Positions 1,994 to 19,326 of a stretch of DNA of 53,863 nucleotides are shown here, piece by piece. The notes under the pieces are model-generated. The model did no database searches. It saw only the letters and a list, made by a program, of their open reading frames with translations, and was not told the origin of the DNA. The DNA lies in NCBI GenBank assembly GCA_002256025.1, contig NKIB01013667.1, positions 1-53,863 on the forward strand. Reading direction: 5' to 3'. Every line of letters starts with the position of its first letter. Position 1 is the stretch's first letter. Origin of the DNA: Asterionella formosa. Its lineage: Eukaryota. The position numbers and the translations under genes are program-made.

Positions 1994-3484
1994 TTACGTT
2001 GATTGCTGGAAGTTGCTTTCAGTACATTCGAGCATTGTATATGCCATTTTCATTTGTGCCTTCATGCATTTCGCTGCCAGGGCATAGCCACCATCTGCTC
2101 CATCCACAAAATGTAGATGATCACTTTCATACGAGTTGATCATACAGGTTATCAAAGCAGAATCAGAACGATGAACTCCATAAAATAATAGACCAGCTTT
2201 TTTCTGGATTTCCAGCCATGAGGTCAAATGATCTGCTTCCTCCGTGGGCATGTCGACAACCATTCTAAGTGCTTCGTCAAATTTAAGATGATCAGTATTC
2301 TGCGACACATCTTGTAGATAAGTTCGTCCTGGAAAAAATCCTCCAATATTGAGTTTCCAGTAGCACAGGAACCTTCCTATCATGGAATCCAAACGCGCTC
2401 GGTGGAGTTTCTCAAAGTACTTCCATCCACCTTTGTTTTCCTTCGACAACAGTTTAGCTTCAGCTGAGAAATCTCCATTTATATCTTGGAACTGAAGATT
2501 CGAAACATTTAGAACACCAGAAGCATTACCAGAATTAACTTTCACTTTCGAGAACGCCGTTGAATACACACTTTCTCTTTCACTTACACAGTCCATGGGC
2601 TGTGCTTTGATAATAATTGAGCAGATGGTTCCATTTTGATTGTGGGCAGGTTTCCACCTGCATTCCAGACCCAGAAGATTCAACTCATCCAATCCCTTGG
2701 TATCTGGATTGTACTTTGCAGCTCCATTCTCGGACTTGATCCACTCTTCCGCTACAGCAATACCACTTCCTCGAAAACACGCGAATGGCGGACCACTGGA
2801 AGGTCTGTACTTTGCAGCGAAGACGGGATGTCCTGCCTTTTGCAGCTCTTGAACCGAGACACGACCAGTCCGCAATTTCAATTGAAAGTTATTTTCTGCC
2901 AACTTTTGCAATCCCCTCAGAGCGCAATCAACAGTTGCCAGCATATTAGTAGGAACTGCCAACGTCGCCCCATCTCCTCCAAAACAAAATGGCAATTCAA
3001 TCCCCGGAAGCGCATTCTTGATCCCGATGATGGAGGCCGCTCCCAAAGCATTGACGTCCTTGTAGCGGCCAGCTTCAATCGCTTTGGTGGACCCCACCAC
3101 ATCTGTTATGACAATCGTCCAATTGTCCGGTACAGGAACAAACGACCTTTCCAAAAGCACATCGGAAAACTTAGTGATATCTTTCATATTCTTGAAGAAA
3201 TCTTGATCAGTGGATATGGTTAGGTCAGTACACGTCTGATACTCTTTCGCTTGGGTAGCTTTCCTGGGGGTGGAAGATTCTTTCAAGCCAGGATCGTTGG
3301 TACTGTCGACCATAACAACATCCACAAAGTTGCCGGTTGCAGCATAAGCGTATTTACTGTTACTATTGGTGTGATCTCTGACAGTCGAATTCATAGTGTT
3401 CAAAACAGACTCACATATGTTTACCAAATGTAATTCGGGCCAGTTGGCGTTATGCTTCCTCTTCTGTTCAAGCTCGGTCGTCAT
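1994..3484 (-). CDS. DUF3095-family protein (nucleotide-cyclase-like N-terminal motif), bacterial type, intronless
   Basis: VP.NW.IVITDVVGSTKAIEAGRYKDVN..GAASI, PFCFGGDGAT, GLECRW, KFDEALRMVVD, YGVH....ALITC, HLHFVDGADGGYALAA. Confidence 0.8.
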   Translation of the reverse strand: MTTELEQKRKHNANWPELHLVNICESVLNTMNSTVRDHTNSNSKYAYAATGNFVDVVMVDSTNDPGLKESSTPRKATQAKEYQTCTDLTISTDQDFFKNMKDITKFSDVLLERSFVPVPDNWTIVITDVVGSTKAIEAGRYKDVNALGAASIIGIKNALPGIELPFCFGGDGATLAVPTNMLATVDCALRGLQKLAENNFQLKLRTGRVSVQELQKAGHPVFAAKYRPSSGPPFACFRGSGIAVAEEWIKSENGAAKYNPDTKGLDELNLLGLECRWKPAHNQNGTICSIIIKAQPMDCVSERESVYSTAFSKVKVNSGNASGVLNVSNLQFQDINGDFSAEAKLLSKENKGGWKYFEKLHRARLDSMIGRFLCYWKLNIGGFFPGRTYLQDVSQNTDHLKFDEALRMVVDMPTEEADHLTSWLEIQKKAGLLFYGVHRSDSALITCMINSYESDHLHFVDGADGGYALAAKCMKAQMKMAYTMLECTESNFQQST

Positions 3485-4689
3485 CAAGGCGACAATAAGG
3501 ACGCCCTGTTAATATTGCAAGTCAAGAAGACAGCGGGATTAGCTAATTAGAGATTTGCTATCAAGTCTCGCTCATGATCGAGGGATTACATGGTCTATGT
3601 ATTACTTTTGTATTATAAAATACCTAGAATATATAAATACTTTACACAGTACCTACCAGTTGTCTAGGGACTGTGTATGACGAGCTATATATACTAAACA
3701 GTATCTTTTGGCACCTGGTGCCAGGTGAGGTACAAGGTCCCATTGTTTACCCGGTACTCGGTGTACCCTTTACCAGCTATCGGTATAACAACAATTAAAT
3801 AAATAATGGGATACCGGTATGACATAAATGAATGATTCAGTACGATTTACATGTATATACCGGTACCGGTACTGCGTAGCCATTCATGAACAAATGTCGC
3901 TCCTTGATGGTTCTCTGTAGATCATAAACCAGTACTGGCACCAGGTACCGGTACTGTAGTGAACACACGGTTGAGTTTCTTAAAAATTAATTGAATACCG
4001 GTATGTAGATGATCACCTTCAAGAGCGACCTTTAGAAAGCAGCTGTTCTTAATATTTTAAAAGCAACAGTACATGTGTACATAATCTATACTGTACTTGG
4101 TGGACAATACAAATGATATATTTATTTATTTCACTAACGCGACAATACATACAGCACAGTATGATGCTTTCAGTTAGATCAATTTATATATTTACCGGTA
4201 TTTATATTTTTTTATTTTAAGATTTTTTATTACCTAAGTACTCGCTCATCGTAATACCTGGTACACACCGTTGGGTACCAGGGTAGTTCATCATGGGACT
4301 TCTCCCACACACAGTTTCGCACAAATGTTCGGACAGTCACGGGCCGGTTTTTCGGCAAAGTCTGACCTTCAGTTCATTCCCAGTTTCTCATGATTTAACA
4401 CAGTATAGCTAGTACTTCTAGGTTGAACTTGGAGTGAAGTTTGATCGTTTGAGGGTAGTAATACTTGTGGACAAATGGCCTTTTTTCTGCTAGTTGTTTC
4501 TCATGTCACTTTACACAGCCAGGTAAGGGTTGTCCAGATGGAATCTATATTTATGCACTTCGATGCAAACGATTACGTAAGTATCAGGTGTGTATGGGCA
4601 ATTTGAGCAACAAGGAACAGGAGGCAGTATCAAGCAAAAATGTATGCACTTCGATGCAAATAACATGAGTATCATGTGTATATGGGCAG

Positions 4690-6475: not shown

Positions 6476-6631
6476 CGCATTACTATATTATCGATCTCAA
6501 CTTCCCTGCATTCTTGTGCTTGTTCGTTCCTTTGTTCATGCATCATCTGAGGAACAGGCACATGGTTTCGCTGTTGAGCTTATCACTTCCCGTATTTGCC
6601 AGCAAGCAAAGGCTCGTATAACCTGAACAAG

Positions 6632-9600
6632 ATGAGAACGGTGTTCGACAATGCTGCCAAACTCGTGCGGGAGGCAGATTTAGTATTGACGACTGATATC
6701 AAGTTGACGTTGTATGGACTCTACAAGCACGTGACCTCAGGTCCTTGCCATGGTCAAGCACCCCCTATCTTCGCAGCTGAGAGGATGGCAAAGCACAAAG
6801 CATGGATTGCATGTCTTCACATGACAGAAGAGGAAGCGATGCGAGCCTACATTGATCTCGCTGCTTCCGTTGACAATTCTCCAGATCAGTGTCTGAAGCA
6901 GCTGCTTCAGGAATCCAATACAGACAACAAATGTCAACGAGAGGAGTCAGGGGAAGATGTAATGCCCTTGTCTCAAAATAAGACTCTTTTGGAAGCAGAA
7001 CCCTTTCGCTCGGATCCTACATGCGCTCCAAGCCAAGGCTTGCAGCAATCGATACTGCGGCCCCAGAAATTGGCGGAGTCGCTGCTCGCGTGCTTCGGTG
7101 TCAAACCAATATTCCCCCGGGGTCAGCTGGAGATAAGCTTTAGTGATCTGCGATTTGCTGCAGTTCAATGCCTATCCCTGGAGTCTTGCACAACACAATA
7201 TCTCGCAAATGAAGCGGAAATTACAAAGCGCTGGACAGCCAGCAGGGGCGATGCAAACGTCATTGTTGGCCTGTCCGTTCGAACACTCTTTGATCTATAT
7301 CTTCGATGCAAGGCGTATCCGGCGAAATCTGAAGTTATTGTAGTGCCGCCAATCAATATTCCTGGCATGATGGATATATTGAGATATCATGATCTCAAAG
7401 CTGTTGGCGTGGATATACCCAAATATGAAGGGAACAACCCGGTGATATGCATTGACATCAATGGAGTTAAAGCTGCAGTGACTGGAAATACTGTGGCCAT
7501 CATGGTTGTGCACCCATTTGGTATCATTAGCGCGTCGGAAAATGAAATGGAACAACTTTGTGAATTGGTAGAAGGACAAAAAATCGATGTGATTGAGGAT
7601 TGTGCGGAGTGCTTCACTGGTCTTGGACCTAGTTCTTACCTTGGAAGTAAGTATGCCGTCATTTCATTCTTTTCCTTTGGAACAATCAAGACGAGCACAG
7701 CTTTAGGTGGTGGTGTTGGGACTGTTCGTGATGAAAGTACCTTTCAGAAAATGAAACGAAAGCACATGCATATGTATAATCAGCAGAAGCAATCCACATA
7801 TTTCAGAAAAATTATGTTGGCGATGATTTTAAAAGCCATTGCGGGATCACCTGTAATGCATGGATTATTGTTCAAAATTATTAATTCCCTCCTTGGAATC
7901 GATACTGATGAGCTAGTGTCGTCGTTGACAGGGAGCTTTCAAATCAAACTCGACCACCAAGCTAAAGAGTGTGAAAACAAACCAGGAAGCACATTGATTA
8001 CTAAGATTCGGTTGCGACCATGCCCAGCGTTGTTGGCGTTGCTGAAACGTCGCTTGGACGAATGCAAGGTAAGTGCGCCGTCATGGAATGCCAAAAAGGA
8101 GAGATGCGAGTTATTGCGATCCTTGTGGACGAATTCTTCCTTCCAAATTGGCTTTCCAATTCCTTCCGCATCATCATTGCACACATATTGGTTGTATCCT
8201 GTGTTAGTGCATGATCCAGTTGTAGTATCTCGAGATCTTTTGCTTAAGGGATTCGATGTGCCGCGAGGTTTGTCTAAACTTGGATTGATCGACAGCGAGG
8301 CATCATGCCCCTTGGCAAAAGAAATGATGGCATCCATTGTCTATTTGCCAGTTTCACACCCACAGCTATCTGAAGCGTCAATGCGGGACCTTGTTGCTGC
8401 TATGGACGAGAGCATTTCAAAGCCTGAGCCTACACTACGAATTCTTTCTGAACGAACACAATCTTTGCATTTGAAACTCATAGTGACTGCATCGATGTTT
8501 TTTTCAATTCTAGCTCGATGCGCGTTCAAGCCAAAAGTATTGGGATATTCCGCAATTTGTATGGTTTCCGACGTGGCTGTATTTCTGTTGAGTAGTGCCA
8601 CTGTTGTTGGTATCATTGGGGCTTGCCTTCGATGGGTCGTTGCAGACTCGTACGTGAATACATCCAACTGCTTCGCCAAACACTGCTCGTTGCTTGACGA
8701 ATGTACAGCTGAAGAGTCCGTTACACAGCCACCACCTTGTGCCGCAAAATACCCGCTTAGCCCTAAATTCGGGTCTCTTACTAATCCCACGAGCGTTTTA
8801 ATTACTGGAGCAACAGGTTTTGTTGGCTCCTCTTTGCTTCACAACCTACTTAATCGGCGAAAAAGTCAATTATTTTCTGGTTACATAGTGATTCTCTGCA
8901 GACCAAAGTACGGGAAAAGTGTTTCAGAGAGAATTGAGAAGTTACTGGATCAACCGATGTTTTCCTTCATTTCGGTGGAAGAAAGAATTCGGTTTATCAA
9001 AGTTGTCATGGGTGATGTCTCAAAACCAAATGCTGGTCTTAACTCGAGTGATATGAAATGCTTGAGTGAAGAGTGGAATGTCGGGATCGTGTTTCATTGT
9101 GCAGCATCTGTCAGCTTCACGCAGAGTCTAGAGGAAGCAGCTTTGGCCAACATTACCCCTGCCCTAGCTCTTCAGTCATTTACGAAACGATTATTCCATC
9201 CGGAAGCAAAGTATATTCATATTAGCACTGCATTTGTGCACGGTAGTAAGTTTGGCACTCCAGAAGAACCTCTTGCTGAAAGGCTCTTTTCGCTTGGCCA
9301 GTACAATGCAGTGGAAGTTTACCGGTCAATGCAAGGGACCCAGTTCTATGCAGAGTCAGCCATGACGGACCTTGGCTTTCCCAACACCTACACTTTTAGC
9401 AAGTGTATTTGTGAACACCTTCTGCTTTCTAATGACGAAGGAGAGAGCATTATTATTCGCCCTTCAATTGTCGGTCCTGCTTTTCGCAATCCCTACGAAG
9501 GATGGGCTGGAGAAAGGCCATCAACTATTGTTGCTGCGGTGTGTCTCCAGATGAAATCTCAATGGAACATTTGGGACATGGGAAATGCAGATGTACCATA

Positions 9601-12600
9601 TATCCCGGTTGATATTACAGCGCAATTCATTGCTGTCAAAGCTTTTGATGATCACTCATCACAAGGTGAACAAGTTGATGTCGACAGTCTCCCTTCCTCG
9701 GACTTAAGCTTTGAGAGAATCAGCATTGACGAGACTTTGCTGTGCGTCCCCATTGAGGGAGAAAGCACATGTACATCCTCACTGTCATCATTAGAAGAAA
9801 AAGACCCCAGAATATTCCACGCAACATGGGATGTAAATTCAAGTCAAGGAGTGCATTTCTCATGGCGGGAGCTAGCTTTTGCTGTTAACCATGTTGGGTC
9901 ATTTATGGGGTATTTTACACGCTTTACTGCTTACGGGGTCCTCATCATGACTGCAAAAATAATACCAGCTCTAAAACTGAGCCGAAGAAACTTTGAATTG
10001 CTTCATTCATGGTTCATAAAGTTTCCAATTGCTGTTTTGCTCAAAATTTGTGGTGCCGTGAATTGGGAGCCACGGTTTGTGCTAGACCTAAAAAAATTGC
10101 TATCGTTCCTTGACTTGCCGGTTTTATTTACCCCATTCACAAAACAAACGTTTTGCTTTCGGTCCGAGATTCCAGTACCAAAAAGCTTATCTGGCGATCG
10201 ATATCTGTTCACTTGTTTGGCTGCTGCTCATCGTTTCCTTTCTCGTCAACAGTCCGAGGTGCCAACAAAAGTCATTATGACGTCTGTGTCTATTGCCGGG
10301 CAAGATTGCCCACAAAGGACATGGGATTTGTGGTGGGCACTCACACAACCTAAGGGAAGCATAATCATTAGAATTGCTGGATTCATTCTCATCAAATTGC
10401 TCCGGGCTATATGTACCGATGTGACAATTGACGTTAGTTCATTCTCGCACTTTCAAAAACTACGATCAGGCAACAGTCATGCTCACCTCATTCTTGCGCC
10501 AACTCATCGGTCAGTATTTGACTTTCTCATTATCAGTTTCATTGCATTCGCTCTTCCGGAGCTGAACATTAAGGTGCCATTCATCGTTGCTGCTGCCGAA
10601 TTTTCGAAACTACCAATCATAGGATGGCTTGCAAGTCGAGCAAACGCCTTCTTCGTTACACGCGGTGGAGGCCATGACCCCTCACTATTAAAAATGGTGC
10701 AACAGTTAAAGCGTGACCATGAAGCCATCGAGGTGTTTATTGAAGGGACTAGGAGTAGAGACAGAAGATTCGCAAAGCCAAGGACAGGGTTCCTTAGGTG
10801 CCTTGTCAACACTGGCGGGGATCACTTGATTGTTCCCATATGTATAAACTATGAAAAGCTACCAGAACAAGCTGCTTTTGCTGCTGAGGAAAATGGGTTC
10901 ACTCCTTCAAAACTTAACACTGACGGATTACTCGCTTGGCTTTGCGACGCATTCTCAGGTCGAATTTGTATTGGACGGATCCATGTCTCTTCCTCAGATC
11001 CAATTATGCTTAGCGAAAGGACCAAAACACCAATCAACTTCCAGAATCTCGCAACGCAAATTCAAAGTGGCCAAAAACAAGCTATTGCGATTTCCAATTA
11101 TCACATTTCAGCAGCAGCAGAGGCTCTGAATCTTGATGAGTCAATTGTGAATAGAGCTGTCGCCGCTTTAGGGTGCAGATATTGGCCAGAAAAAATAATA
11201 ACGAAGTGCGTTGTCCTCTCCAAATCTGAGCGAGACTCCCCGAGTCAACTGTGGAGCATCCTGCTTCATTTCGGTCACCTGTTGGCGCCTTCAATCAACG
11301 TATCTCACCCAAAGTGGGGTACTTGGCTTGACCCTAGTGTTGCAAATGGGTCTCCTTGCTATCGCGAAAGTGATTGTGATGTTGGATTGTTGACGAATGC
11401 CATGCTCCGCATTTTTGACAGAGCTGACGAATTGGCTGCGTGTACAGTTGATAGACTTCAGGAGAAGGGTTTCAGCACTCCAAAGTTCAATCATGTTCTT
11501 CAAAGTGCCATACATTCCTCTCAAGACAATCATGGCATCCCTATTCTTGTGCTACGTCGTGCTGTCGAAACCAAGATCGACTCAGCGTTTGAACCACACA
11601 CTATTGTTCCAAAAGACATTGGTCGAACTACATCATCGAAACCTAGAGATAAGAGAATATTCGATGACAATCAGGCCCTTGGAATGTGGGGGTATATGGA
11701 TAGTAGATTTGTCCTCCAAATCGAAGGCTCAGATGTACCAAGCGTGGTTATGAAAGGATCGAGATACCACCTGTGCGGGAAGTCTCTCAAAAGGCTTATT
11801 CCATTCATAGAAAACGAAACGAAATGTCGCTTCAACCCATTCATCGAATTGAAAGAAAGCAACATGGATATGGCAAGCATGGTATGCCCCCCTCCAGATT
11901 TTAACAATCGCCAACTTGAGGAATTGAGAGCATCTGTTCCGAAATGCTCTATCGAACCTATTGATCGCCTTCGTCATGGGACAGGGCAGACACAAGAAGA
12001 TATTTACATGCTTCGAACAGGGGTTACTTCGGCTTTAAGACTACCCGACATTGTCGTTTGGCCCTCATCCGAAGAGCATGTTGAGGCCCTAGTGTCAATG
12101 TCGAAAGAACATGGGTGGTGCCTACTACCTTTTGGTGGAGGGACAAATGTTTCCCATGCCACTCGTTGCCCATCAAAAGAACAAGAGCCTCGTCCAATTA
12201 TTTCTGTGGACATGAAAATGATGAGTCGAATCAGGTGGATCAATGAAGAAGATGGCTTAGCGCATGTCGAAGCTGGGATCACCGGGAAAGCCCTTGGGAA
12301 CGAAATGAGAAAAAGGGGATATTGTTTTGGTCATGAGCCAGACAGCCTTGAGTTCAGCACTCTTGGAGGTTGGATCGCCACAAAAGCAAGTGGAATGAAG
12401 CGAGGAAAATACGGAAATATCGAAGATATTGTCAAGGACGTGCACATGGTTGGGGCTGAAGGCCTCCTTGCAACAGAAAGTAAAACCACCGGTCGATCTG
12501 CTTTGGGACTGGATCTAGTATCCCTTCTCCTTGGCTCCGAAGGCTGTCTTGGAATCATTACAAGCGCCACCATTAGGATCTGGCCGTTGCCAGAAAGCAC

Positions 12601-13420
12601 CGATTTTGAAAGTGTCATTCTTCCGGACTTTGGTCAAGGCATTTTATTTGCCCGCGACATGGCAAAGCTTGGCCCATTCACACCTGCAAGTGTGCGCCTA
12701 CTCGACAATGATCATTTTCGACTTGGACAAGCCCTTCACGCAGATGGGTCACTTCTGGAAAGGGCGACTGTTCATATAGCCAAGACGCTGTCGCCAAGGT
12801 TGCAAATGGCGTCAAAACCGTCTGCGGTTTGTGCAACAATCATGTTCGAAGGCAAGCGGGATGAAGTTTGCGAGCAAAAGAAATGCCTGAGAAGAATTGT
12901 CGTCAAGCATGGGGGTGTGCTGGTTGGACCCCGCATCGGCCTTGCTGCATACGAACTTACGTTTTCCATTGCATACTTACGAGACTTTGCTCTGACTTAT
13001 CACTTTCTTGGTGATTCATTTGAGACTTTCGCTCCTTGGTCGAAACTTGAAGTTATCATCTCGGCCACAAAGAGGCGAATCCGAAAGGAGCATCTAGAAC
13101 GAAGTTTGCCTGGCTTTCCTTTTATTGCATGCCGAATAACGCAATTGTACCATGAAGGTGTGTGTGTGTATTTTTACGTTTGTATGAACATTGAACAAGT
13201 CACAAACCCAAGTGATGTTTTCACTGAAATTGCACATGCTGCAAGAGAGGAGATTCTAATGCATGGAGGATCCTTGAGCCATCATCATGGTATTGGAAAG
13301 ATTCGGGCTCCCTTCCTGGATGTGCTTTATTGTGATAATTATCGGGCCACTCTCGCTTCAGTGAAGAAAAGCATCGATCCAGAGAATGTATTTGGTGCTC
13401 GGAATGGTATCTTCAGTTAG
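6632..13420 (+). CDS. Multidomain ether-lipid synthase: ACBP + DegT/DnrJ PLP aminotransferase + TM + fatty acyl-CoA reductase + DHAP acyltransferase (GNPAT-like) + alkyl-DHAP synthase (AGPS)
   Basis: Single uninterrupted 2262-aa ORF from ATG 6632 carrying the diagnostic motifs of each domain (see domain entries). Confidence 0.9.
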   Translation: MRTVFDNAAKLVREADLVLTTDIKLTLYGLYKHVTSGPCHGQAPPIFAAERMAKHKAWIACLHMTEEEAMRAYIDLAASVDNSPDQCLKQLLQESNTDNKCQREESGEDVMPLSQNKTLLEAEPFRSDPTCAPSQGLQQSILRPQKLAESLLACFGVKPIFPRGQLEISFSDLRFAAVQCLSLESCTTQYLANEAEITKRWTASRGDANVIVGLSVRTLFDLYLRCKAYPAKSEVIVVPPINIPGMMDILRYHDLKAVGVDIPKYEGNNPVICIDINGVKAAVTGNTVAIMVVHPFGIISASENEMEQLCELVEGQKIDVIEDCAECFTGLGPSSYLGSKYAVISFFSFGTIKTSTALGGGVGTVRDESTFQKMKRKHMHMYNQQKQSTYFRKIMLAMILKAIAGSPVMHGLLFKIINSLLGIDTDELVSSLTGSFQIKLDHQAKECENKPGSTLITKIRLRPCPALLALLKRRLDECKVSAPSWNAKKERCELLRSLWTNSSFQIGFPIPSASSLHTYWLYPVLVHDPVVVSRDLLLKGFDVPRGLSKLGLIDSEASCPLAKEMMASIVYLPVSHPQLSEASMRDLVAAMDESISKPEPTLRILSERTQSLHLKLIVTASMFFSILARCAFKPKVLGYSAICMVSDVAVFLLSSATVVGIIGACLRWVVADSYVNTSNCFAKHCSLLDECTAEESVTQPPPCAAKYPLSPKFGSLTNPTSVLITGATGFVGSSLLHNLLNRRKSQLFSGYIVILCRPKYGKSVSERIEKLLDQPMFSFISVEERIRFIKVVMGDVSKPNAGLNSSDMKCLSEEWNVGIVFHCAASVSFTQSLEEAALANITPALALQSFTKRLFHPEAKYIHISTAFVHGSKFGTPEEPLAERLFSLGQYNAVEVYRSMQGTQFYAESAMTDLGFPNTYTFSKCICEHLLLSNDEGESIIIRPSIVGPAFRNPYEGWAGERPSTIVAAVCLQMKSQWNIWDMGNADVPYIPVDITAQFIAVKAFDDHSSQGEQVDVDSLPSSDLSFERISIDETLLCVPIEGESTCTSSLSSLEEKDPRIFHATWDVNSSQGVHFSWRELAFAVNHVGSFMGYFTRFTAYGVLIMTAKIIPALKLSRRNFELLHSWFIKFPIAVLLKICGAVNWEPRFVLDLKKLLSFLDLPVLFTPFTKQTFCFRSEIPVPKSLSGDRYLFTCLAAAHRFLSRQQSEVPTKVIMTSVSIAGQDCPQRTWDLWWALTQPKGSIIIRIAGFILIKLLRAICTDVTIDVSSFSHFQKLRSGNSHAHLILAPTHRSVFDFLIISFIAFALPELNIKVPFIVAAAEFSKLPIIGWLASRANAFFVTRGGGHDPSLLKMVQQLKRDHEAIEVFIEGTRSRDRRFAKPRTGFLRCLVNTGGDHLIVPICINYEKLPEQAAFAAEENGFTPSKLNTDGLLAWLCDAFSGRICIGRIHVSSSDPIMLSERTKTPINFQNLATQIQSGQKQAIAISNYHISAAAEALNLDESIVNRAVAALGCRYWPEKIITKCVVLSKSERDSPSQLWSILLHFGHLLAPSINVSHPKWGTWLDPSVANGSPCYRESDCDVGLLTNAMLRIFDRADELAACTVDRLQEKGFSTPKFNHVLQSAIHSSQDNHGIPILVLRRAVETKIDSAFEPHTIVPKDIGRTTSSKPRDKRIFDDNQALGMWGYMDSRFVLQIEGSDVPSVVMKGSRYHLCGKSLKRLIPFIENETKCRFNPFIELKESNMDMASMVCPPPDFNNRQLEELRASVPKCSIEPIDRLRHGTGQTQEDIYMLRTGVTSALRLPDIVVWPSSEEHVEALVSMSKEHGWCLLPFGGGTNVSHATRCPSKEQEPRPIISVDMKMMSRIRWINEEDGLAHVEAGITGKALGNEMRKRGYCFGHEPDSLEFSTLGGWIATKASGMKRGKYGNIEDIVKDVHMVGAEGLLATESKTTGRSALGLDLVSLLLGSEGCLGIITSATIRIWPLPESTDFESVILPDFGQGILFARDMAKLGPFTPASVRLLDNDHFRLGQALHADGSLLERATVHIAKTLSPRLQMASKPSAVCATIMFEGKRDEVCEQKKCLRRIVVKHGGVLVGPRIGLAAYELTFSIAYLRDFALTYHFLGDSFETFAPWSKLEVIISATKRRIRKEHLERSLPGFPFIACRITQLYHEGVCVYFYVCMNIEQVTNPSDVFTEIAHAAREEILMHGGSLSHHHGIGKIRAPFLDVLYCDNYRATLASVKKSIDPENVFGARNGIFS
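6638..6880 (+). other. Acyl-CoA-binding (ACBP) domain
   Basis: F..AA..V......KL.LYGLYKH.T.GPC....P......AK..AW.....M..EEAM..YI. Confidence 0.85.
7100..8420 (+). other. DegT/DnrJ/EryC1/StrS-family PLP-dependent aminotransferase domain
   Basis: T.AIMVVHPFG, VIEDCAE (PLP-binding Asp), FSFGTIKTSTALGGG (Schiff-base Lys at 7688-7690), H.YWLYPV, C-terminal .YLPV. Confidence 0.85.
8790..10240 (+). other. Fatty acyl-CoA reductase (alcohol-forming, male-sterility/SDR) domain
   Basis: VLITGATGFVG, HCAASVSF, HISTAFV, NTYTFSK (YxxxK), IIRPSIV, PYEGW, IPVD. Confidence 0.9.
10330..11160 (+). other. Glycerolipid acyltransferase (GNPAT/PlsB-like) domain
   Basis: PTHRSVFDF (HxxxxD), AFFVTR, FIEGTRSR, IVPICINYE. 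Confidence 0.9.
11670..13417 (+). other. Alkyl-dihydroxyacetone-phosphate synthase (FAD-linked) domain
   Basis: WGY.D, PD.VVWP, PFGGGTNVS, GHEPDSLEFSTLGGW.AT.ASGMK..KYGNIED, GSEG.LG, PASVRL.DN, SFET..PW, CRITQLY..G.CVYFY, GGSLSHHHGIGKIR. Confidence 0.92.
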
Positions 13421-13709
13421 TTAAAATGCTACTTGCACCAGTGTGCAAACATATTCTACTGCTTCTATATTGATACTAAAGCTAGACTTCTCACTTAAGC
13501 TTCAGATCTTGAAATATATCTTTCATGTTAAATATTAACCAATAATACACAAAGGAGTGCAGCCATCAGTGGCAAGTGGTACCGGGTTGCATATTTTATT
13601 ATTAGTTTTTGATACTTGATACTAATGTCATAGTTTATGAACAAACCTGGTACCAGGTAGTATGAGCCAAAATGATTCATTTACCTGACAAGAGCAAAAC
13701 AAGAATTAC

Positions 13710-17670: not shown

Positions 17671-19326
17671 TCATGACGACCTTTTGCAATACATGTATGT
17701 ATTTAGTATCAAACAGCCTATTTTCGCTTCATTTTGTAGGCAATAGCCGGACGATGGATAGAGTCGATTTGCTGCAGTGAGGATCTGCGGAGTGGTCGCA
17801 ACAACCGCATACGGGGTTTCCGAGCCAATCTGCAACTCTATAGATTCGTGGCATGCCTGAAGCAGAGCCTTACCGATGCCTTTGCCCCGACTTGATGAGT
17901 CCACCAATAGCCGATTGACTTCAAAGCAAATCAAACCAACAGGATGGCTTGGTTGAGGAGAATGACAGGAAGTGTACCCAATACAACCAATCACCGTTCG
18001 GTCGATGGCATTAAGTGCCACAAGAAACGCGCCTCCCCTCATGGCATATCTTCTTGCAATGCATGGGTCTGTATCTGATGCCTGCATATCAGTCTTCAGT
18101 GCGGTCTTGACCATTTTCCGCACGGCTTTCCAGTCGGTGGCAAGGTCTTGGTAGGTACGAACAAAAAGGTCCTGAACTACCTGCTGATGACTTGTTTCAA
18201 TGCAGTTGACGATGATAGAGACACCGTCTTTGACTTGCATTGACTTCAAAGCCACATCTTGTTTCGGTACATTAGACCATGGGCACATGGCCCGTACAAA
18301 CTTCAATGGGACATTTTGAGAGAACGATATAGCTAGTACATATGCATGGAGGTGCAAGGCCAACGCAGCGTGTTCATCAAAGGGTTCTGGGGCTACCAGT
18401 GTCGTCAAACATGCAGCAGCATGACCTGCGAGACAAGCTTTTGCAAACGCAAACCCAATTCTTTCGAATCGCATTTCCACAGCCAAAGCGTTGCTTCCCA
18501 GAGGATGAAAAACGTCATCTGGATTCGATTTAGCAAGTCCACGTTCTAGCTTGTCAACAAACTTCTGATAGTATCGCGCTTTGTAGCCTTCTATGACCGA
18601 GTTTTGGGAGCTGCTTGCAGCAGGTCCAAGCGCCTCGAATGCGACAAACGCACTTGTCGGATTCGCGCACAGGTGTTCCGCAATGAATCTAGAGATTTCA
18701 TCAACGCCAACACGTCCCAGATAGGCCAACACTAGCTCAGATAAGACAAGAGTGGGAAGGCTGCAGTCCACTTGTGACAAGGCTTGTTGGAGCTGCCTCA
18801 TATCTCGAAGATCGCACGACCGCAGGTTGTAATTTTTGGATGTTGCGTTGCCTTTGTGAATTATGGAAGCGCTATACGCACCAGAATTGGTCATTGAGGA
18901 GTGCTCATTTCCAGTTAAGGGTTGAACCAAGCCTGCTGAAGTTAAGATCCTTCGCTTCTCCCGAAAAATGTCGTCAGTATCAATCTCGAACACTTCGATT
19001 TTATTCGGACAGAGAGAACTTGCCCATAAGCCCAAAATATCCAATCCACCCCCGATAATAACCAGCTGCAGATTTCTTGCGTTGTCTTGGTTAAACTTGA
19101 TGAAGGCATCAATCGTCGAAGTCACAACTGCTATCCTCGCCGCGTATCCAGCATTCACAAGCGGTGATTGTCGCTTGTGACTGGGAGTGTACGAAGCAAT
19201 GGCTTCCACCAAGTCGGCGTAGATGTTTGGATTTTCCTTGACAGGCTGGTATCCCACTTTGAGGGCAGATTGCTTCGCTAGAAGCGCATCATACGCGGTG
19301 CGAACAACGCTGCTGGATGCTGACAT
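17671..19326 (-). CDS. Leucine carboxyl methyltransferase (LCMT/PPM1-like) fused to a C-terminal GNAT acetyltransferase
   Basis: RQSPLVNAGYAAR, QLVIIGGGLD, FEID, DLRD, PTLVLSELVLAYL, EPFDE..A...H; GNAT motif A RLLVDSSSRGKGIGKALL and AANRLY...GY. Confidence 0.8.
   Translation of the reverse strand: MSASSSVVRTAYDALLAKQSALKVGYQPVKENPNIYADLVEAIASYTPSHKRQSPLVNAGYAARIAVVTSTIDAFIKFNQDNARNLQLVIIGGGLDILGLWASSLCPNKIEVFEIDTDDIFREKRRILTSAGLVQPLTGNEHSSMTNSGAYSASIIHKGNATSKNYNLRSCDLRDMRQLQQALSQVDCSLPTLVLSELVLAYLGRVGVDEISRFIAEHLCANPTSAFVAFEALGPAASSSQNSVIEGYKARYYQKFVDKLERGLAKSNPDDVFHPLGSNALAVEMRFERIGFAFAKACLAGHAAACLTTLVAPEPFDEHAALALHLHAYVLAISFSQNVPLKFVRAMCPWSNVPKQDVALKSMQVKDGVSIIVNCIETSHQQVVQDLFVRTYQDLATDWKAVRKMVKTALKTDMQASDTDPCIARRYAMRGGAFLVALNAIDRTVIGCIGYTSCHSPQPSHPVGLICFEVNRLLVDSSSRGKGIGKALLQACHESIELQIGSETPYAVVATTPQILTAANRLYPSSGYCLQNEAKIGCLILNTYMYCKRSS

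Follow-up and report, generated by a model that had tools for sequence, protein, structure and literature searches.

A window of 53,863 nucleotides (the whole stretch analysed here, contig NKIB01013667.1 of assembly GCA_002256025.1 of Asterionella formosa) contains one long, intronless open reading frame (ORF; 6596-13420, plus strand) of 2,274 open codons, the named relatives of which are diatom genes. The protein unites an acyl-CoA-binding domain (ACBP), a pyridoxal 5'-phosphate (PLP) aminotransferase domain, a putative membrane hairpin, a fatty acyl-CoA reductase (FAR), the core of a dihydroxyacetone phosphate (DHAP)/glycerol-phosphate acyltransferase (GNPAT) and an alkyl-DHAP synthase (AGPS), and the subject of this text is the aminotransferase and its possible task among these ether-lipid enzymes (Table 1). 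The likely start is Met13, since the database copy of the protein (P0002) has 2,262 aa and RNA contigs start at 6510-6598. The entire ORF is covered without a gap by one contig of poly(A) RNA, which spans 6549-13541, the flanks having no coverage in that run, and no joint is listed in any of four RNA runs; therefore all domains lie on one intronless transcript. Neither expression level nor strand can be read from these contigs, and the runs with the gene are labelled as lake, freshwater or 'algae metagenome'. Over 6632-13420 the RNA variants comprise 20 amino-acid-changing and 13 silent ones.

Table 1. Features of the fused gene and of related proteins and loci (plain positions refer to the window; P and L numbers denote proteins and bacterial loci)
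Feature	Position or members	Strand	Basis or content
Whole gene (~2,262 aa from Met13)	6632..13420	+	ACBP, aminotransferase, putative two-helix membrane hairpin, FAR, GNPAT, AGPS
ACBP (aa 16-88)	6641..6859	+	PF00887, E 1.1e-16
PLP aminotransferase domain (aa 167-610), DegT/DnrJ/EryC1/StrS fold, uncharacterised subfamily	7094..8425	+	PF01041, model, fold match, conservation
Ser-Val-Arg229 motif, subfamily signature	7274..7282	+	Aligns to Asn-Gly-Thr of perosamine synthase
Asp335, PLP pyridine-binding aspartate by alignment (in EDCAE)	7598..7600	+	103/103; 123/123 rows
Lys365, Schiff-base lysine by alignment (in SFGTIKT)	7688..7690	+	103/103; 123/123 rows
Subfamily insertion (aa 397-471), helical, basic, hydrophobic	7784..8008	+	Model helices, unaligned to perosamine synthase
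Two hydrophobic segments (aa 628-644, 662-678), putative membrane hairpin	8477..8629	+	Hydropathy only
FAR (aa 736-1012)	8801..9631	+	NAD_binding_4 PF07993, E 8.6e-43
GNPAT core (aa 1296-1417)	10481..10846	+	Acyltransferase PF01553
AGPS (aa ~1691-2274)	11666..13417	+	PF01565, PF02913
Fusions without aminotransferase	P0360, P0362, P0363, P0365, P0397, P0399		Including Pycnococcus, two Seminavis paralogues, Ectocarpus fasciculatus (brown alga), Phaeothamnion
Gemmatimonadota cluster	L033/L136, L049		fabF, unnamed gene, YghO-like GNAT, aminotransferase, convergent AGPS, FAR/AMP-binding gene
Cluster with Ger/PlsA-like genes	L068:5279-14226, L084:3785-12877, L085		PlsC-like, divergent GlpD-like, aminotransferase, Ger/PlsA-like genes; partial in L083, L086

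The Pfam model DegT_DnrJ_EryC1 (PF01041) matches aa 245-406 of the protein with 57.1 bits against a gathering cut-off of 19.8. The AlphaFold model of aa 167-610 (mean pLDDT confidence score 92.2) shows the two-domain structure of fold type I and has ArnB as its top structural match (Z 33.5, root-mean-square deviation 2.6 A, 335 of 444 residues aligned), and all 50 structures listed as matches belong to the DegT/DnrJ/EryC1/StrS family. Conservation was followed in an alignment of 103 rows (the domain and 102 long matches, one being the protein's own database copy) and in one of 123 rows (a mixed set of subfamily members); Asp335, Ser360, Gly362 and Lys365 are invariant in all rows of both. Lys365 occurs in 84 of 86 fusions, the remaining two being truncated ahead of it, and the lysine motif is found at all 162 bacterial loci collected. 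A first-pass annotation, made from the letters of the window, had described a PLP domain with its aspartate and lysine intact; this was borne out, and the codon it gave for the lysine was confirmed in the sequence. The catalytic position is Lys in 123/123 rows and not the His which we take to mark the ColD/E1-type dehydratases and which also appears in the PDB titles of the structural matches, so that the domain is not assigned to that type.

With the sugar aminotransferases of PF01041 (ArnB, GDP-perosamine synthase, WecE, PseC, BtrR) the domain shares the fold, the PLP aspartate and the serine and lysine of S-F-x-x-x-K, whereas the structural identity with solved relatives is 12-20% and about 100 residues are left unaligned. 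In sugar enzymes the (S/N)GT motif, the aromatic stacking residue and the glutamate of GEGG have recognised roles. In a profile alignment against perosamine synthase Ser-Val-Arg229 stands in place of Asn-Gly-Thr, Ile/Val in place of the aromatic residue ahead of the cofactor and Gly in place of the GEGG glutamate, and there are about 60 extra residues ahead of Arg472. Arg229 is kept in 102/103 and 119/123 rows, the four exceptions in the latter being gaps. The insertion has a median length of 59 aa in relatives, its helices 1 and 2 carry net charges of +3.4 and +1.5, and it may be a candidate for contact with the membrane or the alkyl chain; the idea that it is amphipathic was rejected, the hydrophobic moment not exceeding that of control helices. 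In a scan of NCBIfam, with ArnB, PseC, WecE, DesI and LegC as the named equivalogs compared, no sugar-aminotransferase equivalog was reached (best PseC, 39.3 bits against a cut-off of 423.5), and relatives of the domain gave 70-76 bits against a cut-off of 631. Judged by these alignments and profiles, the domain stands apart from the ordinary sugar transaminases, in a subfamily of its own that is marked by altered residues in the pocket and by an insertion and whose members are fused to lipid enzymes or carry a peroxisomal signal.

The lipid enzymes of the chain seem to be intact. In 45 of 45 full fusions the Rossmann glycines, Tyr932 and Lys936 of FAR and His1304 and Asp1309 of the acyltransferase are kept; the nearest NCBIfam model of the latter is PlsB, below its cut-off. 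In the AGPS part Pfam finds FAD_binding_4 (1817-1957) and FAD-oxidase_C (1999-2267), the motif GGGTN is present in 45/45 and HHH in 44/45 full fusions, and its relatives are named alkyl-DHAP synthase by the source databases. All three enzymes of the acyl-DHAP ether-lipid pathway are present with their catalytic motifs. Behind the aminotransferase 66 of 86 fusions have two hydrophobic segments, 13 one, five three and two none; if two such segments form a hairpin, the aminotransferase and FAR, GNPAT and AGPS would share one side of the membrane. A predicted complex between the aminotransferase and AGPS domains scored 0.00 with alignments not used, which is no evidence either way.

With the AGPS part as query 112 proteins of 1,250-3,980 aa were obtained, and the aminotransferase is present in 86 of them, in every case immediately ahead of FAR. 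Among the named carriers are Nitzschia, Thalassiosira, Seminavis, Fistulifera, Skeletonema, Triparma, Symbiodinium, Cladocopium and Prorocentrum: the fusion recurs across diatoms, Parmales and dinoflagellates. Of the other 26 proteins four begin in the tail of the domain and many others inside FAR or the acyltransferase. Seminavis has fusions of both types, with and without the aminotransferase, and in those without it ACBP stands at the N-terminus, at the C-terminus or internally. Among the 102 long matches of the aminotransferase 59 show no AGPS domain, 23 of these stopping at most 20 residues from the acyltransferase EGxRS motif (22 of the 23 at the same six-residue motif) and 19 further ones at most 80 residues from it; they are read as gene calls probably cut at an intron, and the claim that about half of the homologues are devoid of AGPS was rejected, as these gene calls apparently end early. 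Two statements on descent were dropped as well, namely a sister relation between the diatom domain and the peroxisomal clade of animals (FastTree 0.99; SH-aLRT 83.6) and, after tree comparison, a repeated origin of the fusion. A tree in which all 21 fused domains are held together has a likelihood above that of the free quick tree (p-value of the approximately unbiased test 0.59), a result that supports no particular order of the deep branches.

A representative protein search with the domain gave 935 proteins at E up to 1e-10. Bacterial proteins are among the stand-alone members, and eukaryotic ones come from echinoderms (Acanthaster, Lytechinus, Antedon), a mollusc (Aplysia), an annelid (Dimorphilus), an amoeba (Rhizamoeba) and oomycetes (Aphanomyces, Saprolegnia, Lagenidium), all of which fall into two tree-defined clades with 33 members. 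A canonical peroxisomal targeting signal of type 1 (PTS1; C-terminal [SAC][KRH][LM]) ends 25 of these 33 proteins, none of 105 other stand-alone matches and none of the proteins at the 162 bacterial loci; in the stand-alone P0200 the signal follows a C-terminal ACBP. Peroxisomes are the organelles that host GNPAT and AGPS. A peroxisomal location, as predicted from these signals, fits the GNPAT/AGPS compartment and suits nucleotide-sugar chemistry poorly. Among further relatives, P0180 is a fusion of the aminotransferase with an oxidase dependent on flavin adenine dinucleotide (FAD), and a 93-member Atlas cluster joins a lactone-oxidase/DprE1-like FAD oxidase to an aminotransferase. In P0224 an endonuclease/exonuclease/phosphatase domain, possibly a lipid phosphatase, is fused to the aminotransferase, and a similar gene lies two genes upstream at L062:6055-7203. 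A 56-member Atlas cluster, mostly of giant viruses, reaches a TM (template modelling) score of 0.78 with the crinoid protein. The search of viral contigs yielded no member of the subfamily, the two matches being low-scoring canonical DegT genes, and plasmids gave no match at 1e-12.

The 162 bacterial loci form 131 clusters at 90% identity; the query that collected the second 80 had been built from proteins of the lipid contexts. Pfam was run on chosen neighbours (48, 100, 22, 91 and 34 ORFs), own profiles and queries on all ORFs of at least 80 aa. Two Gemmatimonadota lineages (L033/L136 and L049), whose aminotransferases are 61% identical, share the cluster of Table 1, with a HAD phosphatase beyond the FAR/AMP-binding gene in L033/L136. 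Over its whole length the GNAT of these clusters is homologous to E. coli YghO (30% identity, E 3e-61), and it matched none of the solved structures. YghO lies within the spt cluster of E. coli BL21, in agreement with its presumed identity as the bacterial ceramide synthase bCerS of E. coli. In both Gemmatimonadota genomes a second YghO-like gene adjoins an Spt-like gene, and therefore the copy beside the aminotransferase is a separate paralogue. The pair of YghO-like GNAT and aminotransferase also occurs in L082 and L158, making five loci in total; near the pair (L033:4624-14325, L049, L136, L082/L163, L158) there are fabF and LPG-synthase-like membrane genes as well. An AGPS search of the 2 Mb genome of L082 (G161) had no match.

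Another arrangement, found in L068, L084 and L085, includes Ger/PlsA-like genes with two BcrAD_BadFG domains and DUF2229, the gene set being split; the architecture is that of Ger as given in the available text of PMC13159169. It may provide an anaerobic way of making the same amino-ether backbone. The GlpD-like gene, split over two frames in L068 and whole in L083-L085, could yield a C2 ketone from acyl- or alkyl-glycerol phosphate and so furnish the substrate required by an aminotransferase where AGPS is absent. PlsC-like and/or GlpD-like neighbours are also present at L062, L156 and L131, and in an even Planctomycetota sample of 11 loci a PlsC-like gene (L182) and the CDP-diacylglycerol synthase gene cdsA (L185) stand directly upstream. 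Between lineages the enzymes of lipid-type contexts are 42-61% identical. The subfamily was found in 2 of 251 Gemmatimonadota and 12 of 201 Planctomycetota genomes, counts that include the centre genome in each case, come from few candidates scored per genome and are too sparse for a co-occurrence test.

Other neighbours are of various kinds. A lactone-oxidase/DprE1-like FAD gene precedes the aminotransferase at 11 of 162 loci (L035:6468-7997 and 10 more), the two genes overlapping, and the pair could convert an alcohol to a ketone and then to an amine. No nucleotide-sugar dehydratase or nucleotidyltransferase was found among the neighbours scanned; by contrast, the two canonical viral DegT genes had epimerase neighbours. 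In a Planctomycetota clade (L008, L015, L030, L032, L042, L045, L063, L078, L080 and others) a flippase/glycosyltransferase/SDR block (SDR, short-chain dehydrogenase/reductase) is divergent from the aminotransferase, which lies upstream of pilin-like (N-methyl) genes. Immediately downstream of the aminotransferase an asparagine-synthase-like gene is seen at L017, L051, L058, L094, L107 and L126, and a methyltransferase at L046, L053 and L129.

FAR, GNPAT and AGPS together yield alkyl-DHAP, the next step is conventionally reduction of its ketone, and DegT-type enzymes aminate ketones. It is proposed, and thought somewhat likelier to be right than wrong, that alkyl-DHAP is aminated by the domain at its sn-2 ketone to give 1-O-alkyl-serinol phosphate, which would then be N-acylated. 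The fused protein would act as a membrane-anchored assembly line in which ACBP holds acyl-CoA, FAR makes the fatty alcohol, GNPAT forms acyl-DHAP and AGPS exchanges acyl for alkyl; the PLP domain would transaminate the resulting ketone, with Glu, Gln or Ala as the probable donor, to 1-O-alkyl-2-amino-2-deoxyglycerol-3-phosphate, replacing the usual reduction or competing with it. Removal of the phosphate, N-acylation to an ether analogue of dihydroceramide and attachment of a head group would be left to separate enzymes; genes for a HAD phosphatase and for an acyltransferase of YghO/bCerS type are present in the bacterial cluster. More generally, the members of the subfamily may be lipid-ketone aminotransferases which take acyl- or alkyl-DHAP; AGPS would provide this substrate in some lineages, a GlpD-like oxidase elsewhere. 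Transamination of DHAP has a precedent in RtxA, according to the part of PMC3222319 consulted.

The same amination had been suggested in the first-pass annotation, partly on the ground that no second SDR domain is present which could reduce alkyl-DHAP. The ORF has indeed a single Rossmann domain by Pfam, but this counts for little as an argument, because at least six fusions without the aminotransferase likewise show no second SDR. That annotation had also pointed to fusion or co-occurrence with AGPS in other genomes as a way of checking; the fusion recurs in the algae as given above, and in bacteria a match of AGPS level (E below 1e-55) was found in 5 of 50 carrier genomes. The tie to serinol-ether natural products of marine origin that it proposed is weaker than it stated, and the RNA runs with the gene bear the lake, freshwater or 'algae metagenome' labels given above. 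What now favours amination of the C2 ketone is the recurrent fusion with AGPS, the PTS1 of the stand-alone members and the neighbours acting on glycerone-phosphate lipids, among them a ceramide-synthase-like N-acyltransferase.

The alkyl-serinols with C14, C16 and C18 chains have formulas identical to those of d17:0, d19:0 and d21:0 sphinganine, 1-O-hexadecyl-serinol and d19:0 sphinganine both being C19H41NO2, and therefore N-acyl alkyl-serinols could be filed as odd-chain ceramides. More broadly, and tentatively, since the whole is judged somewhat likelier to need revision than to hold, 1-O-alkyl-serinol lipids may be an unrecognised class of membrane lipids, ether analogues of ceramides made without serine palmitoyltransferase, which were overlooked because of their sphinganine-identical formulas. 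The backbone would come from one polypeptide in diatoms, Parmales and dinoflagellates, from a stand-alone peroxisomal enzyme in echinoderms, molluscs, annelids, amoebae and oomycetes, and in some bacteria from AGPS or from Ger with a GlpD-like oxidase.

Several findings weigh against amination of alkyl-DHAP as the task of the domain. The fused protein itself has no PTS1 (its C-terminus is IFS), nor does a PTS2-like motif occur among the N-terminal 120 residues. The aminotransferase is less conserved than FAR and AGPS (median identity 37% against 51-52%), and six of nine RNA variants within it change an amino acid, none of them at an invariant site. At least six FAR-GNPAT-AGPS fusions seem truly devoid of the domain, and therefore the aminotransferase is an added function. 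In bacteria a lipid-type neighbour is present at only 13 of 162 loci (one a duplicate; 4 of the first 80), most loci have no recurring neighbour, and the divergent flippase/glycosyltransferase block occurs at 16 of 162 and at 3 of 11 evenly sampled loci. The low count of AGPS-level matches in carrier genomes belongs here too (50 of 80 loci were submitted, the other 30 matches had E of 1e-33 or weaker, and genomes may be incomplete), as does the occurrence of a YghO-like gene in just 21 of the 50. In the table of a review (PMC6315552, consulted in part) only d18 bases are given for ochrophyte glycosphingolipids and not d17:0 or d19:0; the dinoflagellate bases listed there are d18, d19:3 and d19:4.

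AGPS as an obligate partner was rejected on the same count, and therefore acyl-DHAP or another ketone may be the usual substrate of the family. If the true substrate were acyl-DHAP or free DHAP, the AGPS of the chain would serve the ordinary ether branch, and the products would be O-acyl-serinol phosphate, with a possible O-to-N rearrangement, or serinol phosphate, leading to lipids of the N-acyl-serinol or serinophospholipid type. This is considered unlikely, though still deserving attention: an AGPS-level match is missing in 45 of 50 carrier genomes, PlsC-like and GlpD-like neighbours occur without AGPS, and N-acyl serinols are natural compounds in the available texts of PMC3222319 and 10.1101/2025.04.11.648385, but AGPS is fused or adjacent in algae and Gemmatimonadota, Ger/PlsA-like ether genes adjoin the aminotransferase in L068, L084 and L085, and the fusion with ACBP, seen also at the C-terminus of P0200, speaks against free DHAP. 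Somewhat less probable again is a role in breakdown or elimination, in which the enzyme deaminates a dietary or recycled 2-amino lipid, or the ketimine of alkyl-DHAP expels phosphate or alcohol, the product then being deoxy or cleaved and not necessarily retaining nitrogen. Transaminases are reversible, peroxisomes are also catabolic and the eliminating enzymes ColD and E1 have the same fold; the FAD oxidase partners (at 11 of 162 loci, in P0180 and in the 93-member fusion cluster) and one neighbour with a weak, ceramidase-like match below cut-off (L179) fit either direction. The three biosynthetic domains of the fusion, the N-acyltransferase-like gene directly upstream in five loci and the lysine at the catalytic position, where ColD and E1 have histidine, all speak against such a role.

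The remaining two explanations are held to be very unlikely, to the same degree. The amination of FAR's fatty aldehyde intermediate to a primary fatty amine, which the first-pass annotation had offered as its alternative, would account for the position of the aminotransferase next to FAR in every fusion and for the FAR gene near it in L033, L049 and L136; it has become less likely because glycerol-phosphate enzymes occur in several bacterial contexts and the loci in which PlsC-like, GlpD-like or CdsA genes are neighbours show no FAR match at the locus. AGPS in the same chain, moreover, requires the alcohol, and the invariant arginines near the site (Arg229, Arg472) would suit a phosphorylated substrate. 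The other explanation is that the domain is a nucleotide-sugar or cyclitol aminotransferase which provides an amino-sugar for a head group and whose fusion serves co-localisation or is accidental. This is suggested by the solved relatives, all of which are sugar or cyclitol enzymes, by the Planctomycetota clade divergent from flippase/glycosyltransferase genes and by a canonical DegT gene upstream at L175. Set against it are the NCBIfam scores, the low structural identity with its unaligned residues and pocket substitutions, the PTS1 of stand-alone members and the want of nucleotide-sugar dehydratases and nucleotidyltransferases among the scanned neighbours.

Amination of alkyl-DHAP can be compared with several known systems. 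FARAT, the FAR-GNPAT fusion of Tetrahymena, Discoba, Amoebozoa and Myxococcus (MXAN_1675), and the M. xanthus operons MXAN_1676-1675-1674 and elbA-E likewise unite FAR, acyltransferase and AGPS activities, as described in the available text of PMC13012113; the Gemmatimonadota cluster resembles elb in its ElbD-like FAR/AMP-binding gene and HAD gene, whereas the diatom protein differs from FARAT by adding AGPS, ACBP and the aminotransferase in one chain. PEDS1 is given there as undetected in Diaphoretickes, and AGPS, GNPAT and FAR as patchy in stramenopiles, alveolates and Rhizaria (SAR). The main text of that paper had no match for diatom, aminotransferase, DegT or ACBP, and 12 of its 15 supplementary files none for aminotransferase, DegT or PF01041. 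RtxA's N-terminal domain in Bradyrhizobium elkanii is a DHAP aminotransferase for rhizobitoxine (PMC3222319, PMC12666128, both in the parts available); it is likened by chemistry alone, through its proposed PLP transamination of the C2 ketone of glycerone phosphate to serinol phosphate, and it differs in acting on free DHAP. In the bacterial ceramide pathway Spt-bCerS-CerR the N-acyltransferase is bCerS (PMC11087976, consulted in part). The YghO-like GNAT beside the aminotransferase and a predicted N-acylated long-chain amino alcohol are common to that pathway and the proposed one, in which, however, the amine would arise by transamination of an ether ketone and not by serine condensation, making the reduction step unneeded.

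Natural lipids with a backbone of 2-amino-1,3-propanediol, as predicted here, include the serinophospholipids of Limisphaera, the N-acyl serinols of the gut and the didemniserinolipids, which have an ether link. The serinol lipids in the texts consulted, which were available in part, comprise didemniserinolipids (PMC7344992) and inconspicamide (PMC3222319), besides the synthetic NH2- and acetamido-analogues of platelet-activating factor (NH2-PAF, acetamido-PAF; PMC10494250), and none is linked there to this enzyme or reported from diatoms. A natural acetamido-PAF attributed to a hydroid was not confirmed, the literature search giving no match for Solanderia. In that search, the coverage of which excludes most subscription journals, no title or abstract start dealt with the subfamily, with this fusion or with an amino-ether lipid from diatoms, and databases label the fused proteins simply as alkyl-DHAP synthase. 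The aminotransferase is a conserved addition to a known ether-lipid pathway and apparently an undescribed one. If alkyl-DHAP is its substrate, a nitrogen-containing branch of ether lipids and a second route to ceramide-like lipids would exist in major phytoplankton groups, in coral symbionts and in the peroxisomes of many invertebrates; once confirmed, this would be a new lipid class. A candidate function would be gained for an unannotated PLP subfamily of bacteria and eukaryotes, and a specific mis-annotation is predicted in lipidomics, that of odd-chain 'ceramides'. Even if the substrate has been guessed wrongly, these algae are shown by their five-domain fusion to encode an ether-lipid pathway that is intact and transcribed.

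Elsewhere in the window, the gene content of which is of eukaryotic type, Pfam finds genes for an Rpn10-like VWA/UIM protein, an MFE-2 hydratase and a VASt protein. An intronless DUF3095 gene (1994-3487, minus strand, E 7e-106) belongs to a presumably mainly bacterial family and is here found in a diatom-like genome, and a gene at 17671-19326 (minus strand) encodes a fusion of a leucine carboxyl methyltransferase domain with a GNAT domain.

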